From assembly GCA_004022145.1 (NCBI GenBank), contig RCNU01000006.1: 64,000 nt of DNA; one strand, given 5' to 3'. Numbering within the stretch: the stretch's first letter is position 1; each line of letters starts with the position of its first letter. The notes under the pieces are model-generated. The model was given only the letters and a program-made list of their open reading frames with translations. It searched no databases and was not told where the DNA came from. Below are positions 1-9,365 of this stretch, in pieces. A program made the position numbers and the translations under genes. The stretch comes from Paecilomyces variotii (lineage: Eukaryota).

Positions 1-222
1 GGCTTACATAAGCAGGGCATGCTAGCCCGAAAGGCGATAGTTCAATATCAAAGGAACTCTTTCAACTCCGCCATCTTCATTGTCGCTGTCCTTGGCATGT
101 TACTTCACTCCTCATGCGACTGCGCTCCTAGAAAATTCCTAGTCTAGGGAATCATATCTTGGCGTCTAGCTGCATGGGTATATATTGAAAACTCGGCATA
201 TTGACAGAAGACCAAAGACAAA

Positions 223-3200
223 ATGTCTGCGCCTGGAGGGGCCCCGAGCCCTGCGCCGCGCAGTGCAAGTATCGGGCCCGGAGGTGGTATGCCCATGCCT
301 CCTCAGCAGCCGATGCCTTCTCCCCAGGTTGGCGGTGGTACGCCTGGTTCGGCGACAGGATCGACTGGAGTCATGTCCCAGCAGAACCTTAACCAGATAG
401 TAAGTGATGCACATGTATCTTTTGAACGCTGTTCTTTTCTGGCCACTCCTTTTCTGCTATTTGCTATGCTTGAGTTATGTGCTATGTTGTCTGGTTGTAC
501 TTTTCCTATTCGTTTTCTTATTTTTTGCGCGTGGTCTTTCAATATGGTTGGAATGGAATGGTGTGGCAACTCCAGGCTTGGGTAAAGAGTGGGATCCTTC
601 AATTAAACCAGAGCATGAGACGCCTTATGTGGAAGGATGTCATTGTCAATGCCATCTAAGGGCCTTTTCTCCGCTTGCTGTAATATGGTCAAGCTGGACC
701 GTGACTCTGGAGTTCATGCAACTGCGTCCATTCACACTATACACCGAGAACGATATAGATACACCGCCCAGAGCCATGTGTTATTTTCATCGGCTGTTCA
801 GCGGCGGACTCCGTGACATCTCCTTTATGATATCCGGAACAACGCTAGCGCCGACTACTGTTATAACATGGCGTTGCCTGTTTTGTTGTGCTGGTCCCCT
901 CTTCTCAAAAACGCAATAATCGTCGTTGTGAGACGCGTTATCTTTGCATCCACCGCAAGCAAAATGACGAGGAAGAGTGGTCGTGCCTCGAAATCTCGCT
1001 CAAAGGCTAGGTCCAGACGCAAGCCTAAGCATACGGATCATCAGGACTCTCCTGAAGCTCAAGCGAACGAGCAGCAGACTCTTGGTGTTGCAGCTCCGGA
1101 TCATGAAGACGTTGCCAGGGCTAAAGCTCCTTCGGCCACCAGTGACGAATCCACCGTCAAGGCCGACAGCCGCCAGCAGTCTGCCTCGACTTTGAAGGAC
1201 TTCGAGATACATGAGACTGCGACTAGTCCCGAGTGTTTTGCGGGCATGGCTGTTGAGTCCGAGGAAGACTACTTTACATTCCCTGCTGGACTCTCTAGAA
1301 TGGATCGATTACGCTACAGGCGCCTTGCTCAGACTAAGGACTCAGCCCAAGACGAAATCAAGGCGCAGCATGAGTTGAAGGAGAACAGAGAGCACATCGC
1401 TTCGACCCTTCTGGAGAGCAGTTCTCCTCTTGCTGCCCCTGAGGCAAACGTGCTGGCGCCTTCTGGTGGGCTGGCAGCGACTCCTGAGGGTGACTCTTCT
1501 GTTATTGCTCCGGTCAAGAACAAACGTGCCTCTGGGACTCGTAGGAAGCCGGTGAAAAAAGCATCCACAACCAATTCCGAGCAACTGGGTGGCACCCCTC
1601 CAGCGTCACAGGGTGGATCTGCAGCAAATCAACCGCCATCTTCTCAGGCTGCGCCGTATCAAGCTACACAAGTTCCGGTGCAGAACTCGGTTTCATCTCA
1701 GATATTGGATTCTGGAAACGTTGCCGGTCCTGTCAAGCCAGCTAGAAAGAGAGCCAGTGGCCGCCGTCGCCCGAAGTCCTCTGTCACTGATCCTACCGTC
1801 GGCCTCGCACCGTCTGTCAATACAGGAAACGAGCAGATTCTATCTGGGTTGCCAACCTTCCCTTTTCAACACGCATTTCAACCACGTCGAGACAGGGGAT
1901 TGGCTCGCCCTTCTACAACGGGGGGTTCATATGTTTTGTCGACCCAGGGAAACTCTCGTCTGTGGAAGCAGCCAACTGTTGAAGACTTGAATGAAAGAGT
2001 GTGTTATATCTGCGTGCTTGTTGTTGTGCTTTTTGTTTCTGCAATCATGTCGTCTTGTGCTGCTGTCCACATGTTTCTGCCGCACTGGTGTCTACTGTCT
2101 TCCCCGTCCTACTGTTGTTCATCTTGTCTCCAGCACAAACACAAACAAACTCTCCACCTCCATCATCTCACTGACGCTCACTCTCTTGCCAGGTCATCGA
2201 CTATCTTGCCAAGAAGGGATACAGCCGCACTGAAGCCATGTTGCGCATGGAATCCGCAAATCAGGAGATTGATGGCCGCCCTCTGCCTCCTTTGGGCGAG
2301 GATGCGCGTCCCAAGTATCGAGCTGGCTTTGGTAAGTGATATCTAGCTCTTGTTTACAGAATTGTTTGTGCTAATATCCAATTCAGATTTGCTCAAAAGC
2401 TGGGTTGAGGACAACCTGGATCTCTACAAGGTATATCCCCTGTTTCCGATTCAGCCCATCATATACTGACAAGATGTAGCCGGAACTGAGACGCGTCCTC
2501 TGGCCGTTGTTTGTCTACTCTTTTTTGAACCTTGTCACCTCCTTCTACCCTCAGGATGCCAAGCAGTTCTTCGCTACCAACAAGAACCTCTTCCTTCCTG
2601 AACACAGTGAAGATATCCGTGCTCTTGAGCCTATCAGCCTCCCTGAACACGTCCAGGACAACTCCACTGCTAAGTTATATCGTGGCAACAAGTATCGTCT
2701 GATCCTGAGCAATCCTGCCTTTTCGAACCTTATGCAGTTCTTGGAAAATAAGCAGAAGGAAGGCGGTTCGGTTATGTCCGCTATCCTGAGCAGCTACTGC
2801 ACCATTATCACCAAGGAACGTACTGCGGACGATCGATTCAGCTTTGCTGCCATGCTTGGCAAATCTGGTGATACGCAGACCTTCCCTCTTGAGGATGAAG
2901 GTATCCCTGGCCACCATCCGGGCTCCGCTTACACTGGAGATAATCCTGCCATGACTGGGACTCTTCCTCGTCTTAAGCTCGGAAATCTTCCTCCTGAAGC
3001 TCAGCTTGAAGAAGATGTGAGAGGTGAACTCGCGGAAGAAGATGCCAAAAACCCTCCTGTTGCCGGTCGCAACACTCTCGTCCAGGAATATGATCAGATG
3101 ATCAAGAAAGAAGAGGATGAAGATGCTCCAACTCGTGCTGAGATTCGTTACCCGCCTTCTACTGCACGTGACGTTGCAATGGAAGTGCAGAAAGTCAAGG

Positions 3201-4410
3201 AGAACCGTGACAGGTTCAAGATCGAAGGTCGTACTGGTGGCGTTGGCCCTGCTGTCAGTGTCTGCATGTTCACCTTCCATAATACTTACGACGGGTAAGC
3301 AGCCTTTCCATTCGATTACATGGACAAGACCTTCTCTAACCTGATATAAGAATTACGTGTCTCGACTTCTCGGACGACAACATGCTCGTTGCTGCCGGTA
3401 TGCAGGAATCGTACATTCGTGTCTGGAGTCTCGACGGACAGAAGATCAAGCCCACTCATGAAGGCATCGATGATAAGCCGCTCGCGAACTCACACCGTCT
3501 GATCGGCCACTCAGGACCTGTCTACGCTGTCGCTTTCGCTCCCTCTACCACTCCTACTGACGGTTCACTTGCACCCACCAACGTTCGCTTCCTGCTTTCC
3601 TCTTCTGCGGACAAGACTATCAGACTGTGGTCTTTGGATCTTTGGCAGTGCATGGTTGTTTACAAGGGCCATGACCACCCTGTTTGGGACCTTTCCTGGG
3701 GACCGTACGGTTACTACTTTGTCTCTGGCGGCCACGACAAGACTGCGCGTCTCTGGGCTACTGACCGTATTCGTCAACAGCGTATTTTCGCCGGACATGA
3801 TCAGGACGTTGACTGCGTCTGTTTCCACCCCAACTCTGCCTATGTCTTCACCGGCAGTTGTGACCGCACTGTCCGTATGTGGGCTGTGACCACTGGTAAC
3901 GCTGTCCGCATGTTCACTGGCCATACGGGAAATATCACTGCGCTGGCTTGCAGCAAGAACGGAAAGATACTGGCGTCTGCCGATGACCAGGGATCTATCA
4001 TCCTCTGGGATCTCGCTCCGGGTCGCCAGCTCAAGCGCATGCGCGGCCATGGAAAGGGGGGCATCTGGTCACTGAGCTGGAGTGCCGAGTCCACCGTTCT
4101 TGTTTCCGGTGGTGCAGATGGGACCGTCCGCGTGTGGGACGTTGCCGGTCCCGCTCAGGATCCTGCAGCGGCCCAAGGACGGGTCGTCGGCGAGGGCGGA
4201 GCGGGCACCAAGATCGATGCCGGCAATGCTTCCGCTGCGGGCGCGCAGCCCTCCGCCTCTGTTGGCCCAGGATCCAACAAGAAAAAGGGTAAGGATGTCG
4301 TGGTCACTCCTGACCAGATCAGCGCTTTTCCCACCAAGAAAAGTCCTGTGTACAAGGTCAAATTCACGAACATGAACTTGATCGTGGCCGGCGGTGCTTA
4401 CCTCCCTTAA
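223..4410 (+). CDS. TAF5: TFIID/SAGA subunit TAF5 (LisH, NTD2, WD40 repeats)
   Basis: Exons 223-399, 2193-2331, 2387-2430, 2480-3294, 3351-4410, all with GT-AG introns. Spliced product reads ...QQNLNQI|VIDYLAKKGYSRTEAML (LisH), PELRRVLWPLFVYSFL (NTD2) and WD40 repeats (GHSGPVYAVAF, GHDHPVWDLSW, GHDQDVDCVCFHPNS). Confidence 0.97.
964..1998 (+). CDS. Putative alternative first exon of TAF5 or nested ORF in intron 1 (345 aa, basic, low complexity)
   Basis: ATG at 964 in aaaATG context; frame is open from 868 to 2346. Phase-0 GTGTGT donor at 1999 can splice in frame to the TAF5 exon 2 acceptor at 2192/2193. Confidence 0.65.
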
Positions 4411-5042
4411 ACGGGGCAGGTTCAGCAGGGGGTGACCCTCGGATGCGCCTTTCAGCTTTACTCACTCCTGGTTTCTTCTGGTTGTTTTGTCCTTTTCTAT
4501 CTTATGCTTTTATTCCCGCCGTCCCCACGGGGAGGTGGTGGGCTGGGCTGTGGTGGCGTCACGGCTAGGCGGCGTCGTCGGGATGGAGTTTTGTTCGTAT
4601 CTATTTTCATCAACCGGATAGCTTCGAGGCAGATTCTTTGGTCCCCTAGGAGACTGAAAGTTCATAAGTCCTCGTTAAGCACCATGTAATACCAATACTG
4701 AACTGTGAATATTGTATTGTGTGTCACTGTAGTAACTAGGATTGTAAGCCATGGTGTAAGATCGTCCTTATGAGAGTTCTGTCCCTGATTTCGTTTTTCG
4801 GAACTCGAGCTTCAAATTCTTGTAGTTAAGACTACGACCGAGCATTTGGAGAAGAGAAATATGAGATTTGCCCACAATGTCGTGAGCTTCTACCCATATG
4901 TATATAAGAGCATAGACCGCTGCCTGAACCTCCTCACGCAGAGAACTAAGCAATACCAGAACCCACCCCTTTTCATCAAATAACGACAACATCCCATATT
5001 GAAGCTAGCAAAAAGCCAGACAAACAAACAAATCCCATCATC

Positions 5043-7666: not shown

Positions 7667-9365
7667 ATGGTCTCACTCTGGGGTTCGAAGAAAGATGACC
7701 AAGGGAGGGCTGAGAATGGTGACCATGCGCAGCAAGATAACGACCGCCATTCTCCCGTCAGAGACTACGGAAGAAGGTCTCAGGAACCAGAGCCGGATGA
7801 GCGCACGCGATTGCTCCCCAGAGAAGGAAATGGCTATCTGAGTCCTGATGATCCTGCTGTAAGTATAGACCCATCAGACATATATCTTCCTTCCATGTGT
7901 GCAATCGCTGAGAAACTGTTCGAATCCGATTTAGGTGTCTCCATATAACCTCTGGACCGTACGAGCCCTTCGAGGTCTCTCTGTCTTCTTCCTCGCTATC
8001 AGCTTCGTCTGGTGGGTATTCCTGCTGGTGTCAATCTTCGTCAGTCCACCATTGATGCATAGTCGCGGATCCGGCTTCTTCGACTTTGCCTACACGAGCT
8101 TGACCGTTGGCTATATTATTATCGGACTGCTGTTCTTCTCCGTGCCCTCTCGGCCTATGCTAATCTGGGGCGCTGTTCTGTCCGTTCTCTTATTTATCGA
8201 TATGCTTATTATCGTGTCCGTGCCCCGAATTCGCGTGGAAGAAGGTTGGGTTGGCATCGCGTCTGTCATCTGGGCGACTCTTATCTCAATCTACAATATT
8301 ATGCAGAATCGATACGTGGCATGGGGCAAGAAGGAAGAGGAAGAACGGCTCACTGGTCGTGAGGAGACACGACGTACTCTGGTTGAATGGATCGCAGTCA
8401 TGGTGGAACTGGTCATTATGGGAATCATCGCTATCGTCGTGCTCCTTATGACAGCAACCCTCATCCTTCGCGCGAGGGACGCGAGTCTCGCTCCGCCAGG
8501 AAAGAAATACTACGTTGACGGCGACAAGTACCAGGTGCACGTCGCGTGCGTGGGCAACATCACTGCTCAAGAAGATAAGCAATCGCCCACAATCCTCGTC
8601 GAAGGTGGTGAGGGCCCCGTCGAGGACAGCCTGCAACCCTGGATCGATCAACTCTACCAGCATGGCACCATCGACCGCTACTGCTACTGGGATCGCCCGG
8701 GCTTCGCCTGGTCCGATAACGCACCCTCCCCTCACTCTGCAGGCATGGCTACCGACGCTCTATCCGAAGCTCTCGCCATCGCCGGGGAAGAAGGCCCCTG
8801 GATTCTCGTCTCCGCCGGCGTCGGCAGTATCTACAGCCGCATCTTCTCCAGCCGTCACCTGCGCGACGTCCAAGGCCTCTTCCTCATCGACCCCCTCCAC
8901 GAAGACTTCCTCTCCCAAGTCGGCAAACCCGGCCGTGGCTTCCTCCTCTGGGCACGAGGCATCATCTCCCCTCTCGGTCTGGACCGTCTCGCAGGCGCCA
9001 TTTTCAAAGGCCGCACCCGCGAAGACCGCGTCTTCGGCCAGAGCGCATACCAAGGCGGCCGCTTCATCAAAGCCAAGCTTCAAGAAAACCTCGTCGCGGA
9101 ATCCATGACGGCCAGCGAAATCGCCAGTGCGCGCCACATCCAGACCCGCGACACGCCTCTTGTCATAGCCAGTTCGGGCGTTGAGGTCCGCAAGAGCGAG
9201 AAATGGGCGAAGCGCCAGGAAGATCTGGGTCAGATCACTGATAACCTGATCGCGTGGGATGTGATTAAGCATGCTCCACATGAAGTGTGGAAGACGTCTG
9301 ACGGACGGAAAATCATGGAGGCTAGATTGGGAGATCTACTCAGGGCTGTTAAGGATGAAGCATAA
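7667..9365 (+). CDS. Integral membrane protein with C-terminal alpha/beta-hydrolase-like fold (yeast YNL115C-like)
   Basis: EPDERTRLLP and YLSPDDPA|VSPYNLW across intron 7859-7935; several TM helices; YCYWDRPGFAWSDNAPSP and GPWILVSAGVG. Confidence 0.85.

Follow-up and report, generated by a model that had tools for sequence, protein, structure and literature searches.

Why does the TAF5 gene of the mould Paecilomyces variotii carry a first intron of 1.8 kb, and could the long open reading frame (ORF) inside that intron give the gene a second way of beginning its protein? The question arises at the 5' end of a 64,000-nucleotide (nt) stretch of contig RCNU01000006.1 (NCBI GenBank assembly GCA_004022145.1), hereafter the window, in which all positions are counted. 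TAF5 is a scaffold common to transcription factor IID (TFIID) and the Spt-Ada-Gcn5 acetyltransferase (SAGA) complex, and fungi, to our knowledge, are thought to have a single form of it. We hold with moderate confidence that positions 964–1998 of the window are a genus-restricted, rapidly evolving, frame-conserved alternative first coding exon, giving a minor long form of TAF5.

The Paecilomyces gene would then begin its coding sequence with one or the other of two mutually exclusive exons, both spliced to a single acceptor (2192/2193). The canonical exon (223–399) is spliced across 1793 nt and gives a 744-amino-acid protein. The second would be transcribed from a start site within the intron, at about 740–960, translated from its own ATG at 964 and spliced from a phase-0 GTGTGT donor across 194 nt to exon 2, and its product would be a 1030-amino-acid TAF5. 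In this product, a 345-residue basic, largely disordered region would replace the P/G/Q-rich N-terminus of 59 residues, and LisH helix 1 would have a degenerate start over its first six residues. If this is true, at least one mould genus makes a second TAF5 from an internal promoter, and this long form has a different N-terminus, with half of the dimerising LisH helix changed and a long basic tail added. The locus would also allow a clean genetic test of the TAF5 N-terminus (removing one first exon and keeping the other), and it bears on how a shared subunit is steered to different complexes or life stages.

Gene structure and the intronic frame

The five-exon, plus-strand gene at the 5' end of the window is TAF5: its product contains the Pfam domains TFIID_NTD2 and WD40 and is 73–88% identical to the named TAF5 of Aspergillus, Penicillium and Talaromyces. 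The RNA data consisted of assembled contigs from four runs, with splicing visible in one of them (X7) only. A 2668-nt X7 contig spans 88–4708 with four GT..AG joints and places the beginning of the 5'UTR (5' untranslated region) at 88 or further upstream, giving a canonical exon 1 with 5'UTR at 88–399 (+). The coding part of this exon (223–399) encodes 59 amino acids ending in ...SQQNLNQI and matches the N-terminus of the short protein model P0013 exactly. Canonical intron 1 (400–2192, +; GTAAGT...CTGAC...CAG) is removed by the X7 joint 399→2193. At 1793 nt it is as long as the preliminary description of this DNA had stated, whereas the other TAF5 introns, all spliced in the same contig, measure 55, 49 and 56 nt (2332–2386, 2431–2479 and 3295–3350). 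Shared exon 2 (2193–2331, +) begins VIDYLAKKGYSRTEAML and covers LisH profile positions 7–27; shared exons 3–5 (2387–2430, 2480–3294 and 3351–4410 including the stop, +) encode the NTD2 and WD40 domains. The short product (744 amino acids) is letter-identical to P0013 and the predicted long product (1030 amino acids) to a second model, P0009; both score 155–156 bits for TFIID_NTD2 (PF04494) and 176–180 bits for WD40.

The candidate alternative first coding exon (964–1998, +) begins in an aaaATG context, has the basic N-terminus MTRKSGRASKSRSKARSRRKPKH and runs for 345 codons. Read in this frame, 817–2346 is open throughout (509 codons); the other frames over 964–1998 reach at most 144 codons. 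When 1700–2192 was scanned for donor-like GTs matching at least three of four consensus positions, four sites were returned, and AGA|GTGTGT at 1998/1999 was both the sole phase-0 site and the sole site matching all four positions. The putative long-form intron (1999–2192, +; 194 nt) would run from this donor (1999–2004) past a branch-like CTGAC (2171–2175) to the AG at 2191–2192, an acceptor common to the canonical and long-form introns. AT skew drops to -0.37 and -0.39 over 1901–2200, marking this DNA as T-rich. The preliminary description had proposed a coding-like ORF that stops at a phase-0 GTGTGT, followed by T-rich, intron-like DNA up to CTGAC...CAG; the ATG, frame and donor phase all hold, and the AT skew and the position of CTGAC agree. 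Upstream of the alternative ATG, 714–963 (+) may hold an internal promoter and a 5'UTR.

The two splice routes yield similar junction peptides: ...TVEDLNER|VIDYLAKKGY for the alternative exon and ...SQQNLNQI|VIDYLAKKGY for the canonical one. Both place L at -4 and N at -3. The proposal that the two junctions mirror each other, with LN in the same register, is thus borne out by their translations. Base composition was less distinctive: the codon-position GC of the ORF (0.59/0.55/0.50) did not set its frame apart from the other frames, and an inexact join of the TAF5 coding sequence gave 0.57/0.55/0.53. No Rfam match was found at E ≤ 1 in 350–2250, and no repeats longer than 24 nt were found in 1–5000, which held short chance pairs only. 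Within these limits, the intron showed no signature of a mobile element or RNA gene.

Conservation of the frame and of the LisH junction

Relatives within the genus argue for a functional exon. It was found in four Paecilomyces lineages, namely P. variotii, the divergent strain P0017, P. lecythidis (P0005/P0023) and P0006, with the same ATG and the same frame in all four. Identity to the window exon falls from 292/340 residues (86%) in P0017 to 164/317 (52%) in the P. lecythidis model P0005 and 143/326 (44%) in P0006, while the rest of TAF5 is identical at 679/685 positions in P0017 and 664/685 in P. lecythidis. P0023 and P0006 were called as unbroken ORFs in raw sequence, which shows the frame to be open at the DNA level. 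Alignment gaps within the exon (2, 6 and 10 gap events) are all in frame. Under a simulation of neutral substitution in the window ORF, the probability of meeting no stop was 0.0008 at 54% amino-acid identity, and at 47% none of 4000 replicates remained open. Judged by these alignments, the open frame and donor of the ORF, colinear at 86%, 52% and 44% identity, are more than chance.

The conserved frame also ends abruptly on both sides. Right after the exon, V-C follows in frame in all three raw ORFs (window, P0023 and P0006), implying a GTNTGY phase-0 donor in each. Upstream of the ATG, the frame is shifted relative to the window in both P. lecythidis and P0006; part of the DNA upstream of the ORF is still recognisable in P0006, in a changed frame, and the DNA upstream of the ATG is therefore non-coding. 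By this comparison, the coding frame is bounded exactly by the ATG at 964 and the donor at 1999. A conserved ATG-to-donor frame lacking its own stop is sensible only if spliced, and exon 2 is the only partner in phase. Canonical exon 1 is kept in P. lecythidis beside the alternative exon (57/59 residues), so both first exons coexist there.

The DNA past the donor bears on another explanation, in which the ORF is an independent nested gene, unspliced at 1998 and translated into the T-rich tail, with a product that would be basic and disordered, carry a hydrophobic segment at its C-terminus and have no relation to TAF5. The frame does stay open beyond the donor, to 2346 in the window and for 40–54 further codons in P0006 and P0023, and all three tails are hydrophobic. 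However, these read-through tails stop after 115 codons in the window, 54 in P0023 and 40 in P0006, with no conserved stop codon or C-terminus. Furthermore, the tail contains a conserved block of about 65 nt (2049–2115, +), in the 3' part of the intron, that is recognisable in three Paecilomyces lineages when any frame is allowed: P0023 keeps FLPHWCLLSSPSYC in the ORF frame, and P0006 matches best in another frame (score 63 vs 36). Conservation in frames that differ by lineage argues that the tail is not conserved as coding sequence. A same-strand terminator within the TAF5 intron would presumably also cut canonical transcripts, and the L at -4 and the phase-0 donor, both conserved, sit poorly with a gene unrelated to TAF5. 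We consider a nested gene quite improbable. The block at 2049–2115 could be a splicing or transcription control element. Its conservation seems to exceed that of the last part of the alternative exon, which lies immediately upstream.

Within the exon, conservation is uneven. Residues 1–38 (MTRKSGRASKSRSKARSRRKPKH...) are unvarying in ten P. variotii alleles and nearly identical in P. lecythidis. The pattern suggests that selection mainly preserves the open ATG-to-donor frame, the basic stretch of ~38 residues at the N-terminus and a small number of short islands, and does not act on most amino acids. This fits an exon that chiefly serves to deliver TAF5 from a second promoter with a leader resembling a nuclear localisation signal (NLS).

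What the alternative exon would contribute to the LisH motif is more limited. The preliminary description had proposed that the long form rebuilds this motif, and the scores weaken that proposal. Against a cut-off of 21.6 bits for Pfam LisH (PF08513), the canonical junction scores 33.7 bits over profile positions 1–27 and exon 2 alone 22.9 bits over positions 7–27. The P. variotii alternative junction also gives a full match (26.6 bits, positions 1–27; 3.7 bits more than exon 2 alone). There is no such gain in P. lecythidis (22.9 bits, positions 7–27) or P0017 (22.1 bits, positions 7–27), leaving a full-length match in one of the three alternative junctions scored. L at -4 is kept in all four lineages; N at -3 is kept in two, with H in P0017 and D in P0006. 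An AlphaFold2 model of the long form was poor (mean predicted local distance difference test score, pLDDT, of 42.6 from a 12-row alignment): it placed a helix across the junction (residues 339–352) at a pLDDT of only 33–51 and left the exon mostly disordered, with one helix at about 112–151 (pLDDT ~60). At best, then, the alternative exon may supply a degenerate start of LisH helix 1. In yeast Taf5, interface residues of this helix matter for function, according to the part of the study that deals with them (PMC11627113), and in Paecilomyces the opening six residues of the same helix differ between the products of the two first exons. By analogy, the long and short forms could differ in function via LisH helix 1.

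Evidence from variation, gene models and RNA

Several observations weigh against an alternative first exon, and they come from within-species variation, homology searches, deposited models and RNA alike. Some of them would suit a different account, in which 964–1998, whether a relic without function or an orphan ORF of recent origin, merely lies in a long intron and is not translated as part of TAF5, and the long GenBank models are predictor artefacts that avoid a 1.8-kb intron. Compared with the X1/X2 haplotype, which is ~98.5% identical to the window, the exon carries 14 nonsynonymous changes (778 sites) and 5 synonymous ones (257 sites); exon 1 carries two changes, both synonymous. Among the ten alleles, 61 of 345 residues vary in the exon vs 4 of 685 in the rest of the protein, and the within-species sample is itself biased, since alleles were sampled as open ORFs or models. 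Within the species, the exon thus seems to evolve almost neutrally, as a relic or orphan would.

Homology searches offered the exon no wider ancestry. No Pfam family matched the exon or the whole 509-codon frame. A near-length protein search returned one match, the same locus of another strain, and a search of a representative library returned three, of which P0007 (147 amino acids, E 4e-4, 35% identity) was marginal. When metagenome contigs were scanned with an alignment of the exon, 314 patterns matched and no relative emerged, and tblastn/blastn of the exon against 19 other TAF5 first introns gave a best E of 0.014. In the searches made, the exon appears to be without a detectable homologue outside Paecilomyces. 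The preliminary description had suggested looking for the ORF and its donor phase in TAF5 intron 1 of other Eurotiales; both are kept in four Paecilomyces lineages.

Near-neutrality within the species and restriction to the genus are both readily accommodated by a relic or orphan. The comparison between lineages is not: the ORF is open at 52% and 44% identity, where the neutral probability of no stop is at most 0.0008; every indel is in frame; and the ATG, basic N-terminus and phase-0 donor are kept while the flanks shift frame. We think a relic or orphan ORF unlikely.

Differences from the X1/X2 haplotype are also unevenly spaced. Twelve of them, mostly transitions, fall in 160 nt (554–713), and none fall in the next 389 nt (714–1102). 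This difference-free stretch takes in the DNA ahead of the alternative ATG as well as codons 1–46.

Deposited gene models speak on both sides. Although the exon had been described as hidden, at least 18 GenBank P. variotii protein accessions, from 24 contigs, already hold the long model. Examples are the 1030-amino-acid KAJ9214956.1 and KAJ9370132.1 of P. variotii DTO strains and the 1004-amino-acid KAL1884733.1 of P. lecythidis. Among the models compared, P0004 (1030 amino acids; 'hypothetical protein DTO282E5_5192 [Paecilomyces variotii]') is 96% identical over the exon, and P0005 (1004 amino acids; 'Transcription initiation factor TFIID subunit 5 [Paecilomyces lecythidis]') is 46% identical over the exon by BLASTP. 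The junction 1998|2193 is used exactly by P0004 and P0009 (P. variotii) and by P0005 (P. lecythidis). The short model is represented by one 744-amino-acid sequence, RWQ94916.1 / XP_028484561.1, of the P. variotii reference. The long product is thus already in databases as a competing gene model, and public annotations of TAF5 in one species disagree (744 vs 1030 residues): the two kinds of record are single models from separate annotation efforts, and none gives both as isoforms.

Two considerations limit what these models can show. According to the part of the source that covers it (PMC6300479), annotation of the reference strain was aided by a mycelial transcriptome from four culture conditions, and this annotation picked the short model. 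Its choice is consistent with a canonical form that predominates in mycelium, and it would be expected if the long models were artefacts. Secondly, among 118 listed TAF5 homologues, 62 have the canonical exon 1 end, 44 attach another N-terminus to exon 2 and 12 are without the N-terminal LisH core. Many of the 44 non-canonical N-termini are only 3–30 residues long, suggesting that exon 1 frequently escapes prediction; the length of intron 1 appears to be why the true first exon is absent from many fungal TAF5 models. With 44 of 118 homologue models carrying invented or other N-termini, as the artefact account would have it, gene models alone are weak evidence for the long form. In the literature on TAF5 first exons, promoters, LisH and fungal isoforms, we found no description of such a TAF5 isoform.

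The one RNA run with visible splicing shows the short form. The preliminary description had proposed two mutually exclusive first exons giving two isoforms, with RNA joined from 1998 to 2193 as the mark of the second: the exon, ATG, phase and junction are kept, and the 1998→2193 joint was seen in none of the four runs. The only intron 1 junction observed was 399→2193, in X7 at a depth of 418. A missing 1998–2193 joint would suit a relic or a nested gene, yet it does not settle the matter, since assembled contigs drop rare variants. X7 contigs do lie on the alternative exon region (742–892, 932–1154, 1141–1397 and 1489–1668; depth 5–15), but these pieces could be pre-mRNA, and the first of them begins at 742, which is not a mapped 5' end. 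X7 cover is absent in bins 481–640 and 1761–2080, and those bins were not used as evidence. An X5 contig (1440–2128) crosses the donor unspliced, as would be expected of a nested gene; X5 pieces span no small intron, and this record may be RNA or DNA. Contigs of X1 and X2 are colinear with the genome, small introns included, and are uninformative on splicing.

The same data bear on a further possibility: that the segment is an internal, regulatory exon served by the canonical promoter, spliced from exon 1 to an acceptor at ~932 and from 1998 to exon 2, and forming in P. variotii an isoform of the nonsense-mediated decay type that tunes TAF5 levels. A P. lecythidis model (P0022; 1073 amino acids) links exon 1 to the alternative exon via ten residues (TRYLAYITSK), a matching acceptor AG lies at 931–932 in the window, and an X5 contig is unbroken over 130–1033. 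However, a 399-to-933 splice would be out of frame in the window, with a stop after 25 codons, and the in-frame version is not conserved. Selection for a 345-codon frame from a conserved ATG would be unexpected in a poison exon, and the 399→933 joint occurs in none of the four runs. We regard an internal regulatory exon as very improbable.

Known systems and the pattern in other fungi

An alternative first coding exon at TAF5 would have precedents of more than one kind. Metazoans have the paralogue pair TAF5 and TAF5L, and fission yeast has two Taf5-like genes. In these pairs, as in the proposed Paecilomyces arrangement, a single organism has two TAF5-type proteins that share the NTD2 + WD40 body, and the two could serve TFIID and SAGA separately. 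The preliminary description had likewise suggested that the two Paecilomyces isoforms may be divided between TFIID and SAGA, or between developmental stages. Whereas the members of each pair are separate genes that differ over their full length, Paecilomyces would have one gene whose products differ in the N-terminus only.

In fungi, protein isoforms that differ at the N-terminus through alternative transcription start sites or first exons are a known class (PMC9604717; A. fumigatus CotA, PMC11484838). As in the cases set out there, the Paecilomyces locus would combine a further, intragenic promoter with a separate ATG and a downstream body common to both proteins. It differs from them in its setting, since the gene encodes a general transcription factor and the exon lies in an intron of 1.8 kb, and in that the exon would replace part of LisH helix 1. 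A further difference is that use of the Paecilomyces exon is inferred from conservation and not from RNA.

Long first introns are not peculiar to Paecilomyces. The TAF5 alignment drew in 26 loci from metagenome contigs (L001–L026), and both exon ends could be located in 19 distinct loci. In all 19 measurable loci, the intron after ...SQQNLNQI is 273–1572 nt long. It appears that a long TAF5 intron 1 at exactly this site is general in these filamentous ascomycetes, with Paecilomyces as the extreme.

Two of these loci raise the question of whether other introns also house an exon. L011 matches a Penicillium citrinum protein at 99.7% identity over 344 residues, and the nearest named relative of L001 is a Penicillium protein (85.7%). 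Intron 1 of L011 contains an 81-codon ORF (8710–9018) with the basic start MAPRSTFLPSRRRQPKKRSSRQTR... and a phase-0 GTTTGT donor 66 nt before the acceptor; that of L001 contains a 61-codon ORF (8662–8902) with the basic start MPKRRRARGKKRSPRPSAR... and a phase-0 GTCTGT donor 58 nt before the acceptor. In both ORFs, K or R makes up 9–10 of the first 25 residues, the upstream DNA is CT-rich and the shared CTGAC...AG lies downstream. Among deposited models, 14 from Penicillium or Uncinocarpus attach non-canonical N-termini of 44–396 residues to VIDYLAKKGY, and 5 of the 14 start basic; one of these models, P0069, holds exon 1 plus an ORF of such a kind.

These observations would be accounted for if the Paecilomyces exon were one case of an old or recurrent Eurotiales TAF5 design, an idea that we put forward as possible but doubtful. 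In such a design, the intron after ...SQQNLNQI would be kept long because it houses an internal promoter. It would also contain an alternative first exon with a strongly basic, NLS-like start (M-[TPA]-[RKP]-[KR]...), closed by a phase-0 GTNTGT donor a short way upstream of the common branch site. The TAF5 so produced would form a second class, distinguished by an import or targeting signal of its own and by a changed LisH helix 1, and would be a one-gene counterpart of TAF5/TAF5L. A profile of the Paecilomyces exon found nothing below E 2.5 among the Penicillium alternative N-termini, and an all-against-all comparison of alternative exons gave three separate families with no detectable homology between them. 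In L009, the nearest relative compared at the DNA level (TAF5 90% identical), the mRNA-type ORF P0029 uses exon 1, and the 1057-nt intron 1 contains no basic-start ORF of such a kind.

The non-canonical N-termini themselves include one family in Penicillium salamii and P. olsonii and another in P. expansum and P. psychrosexuale. Two Penicillium bovifimosum locus tags (P0067 and P0097) match TAF5 at 74% and 68% identity, a hint of a paralogue. Finally, P0074 (from a 2578-nt Logan contig) and P0141 (ENA-derived) are ORFs of other fungi that begin exactly at the first codon of exon 2 (MIDYLAKKGY...). In both, the internal introns are removed and no in-frame exon 1 lies upstream, and they may represent transcripts with another 5' end.

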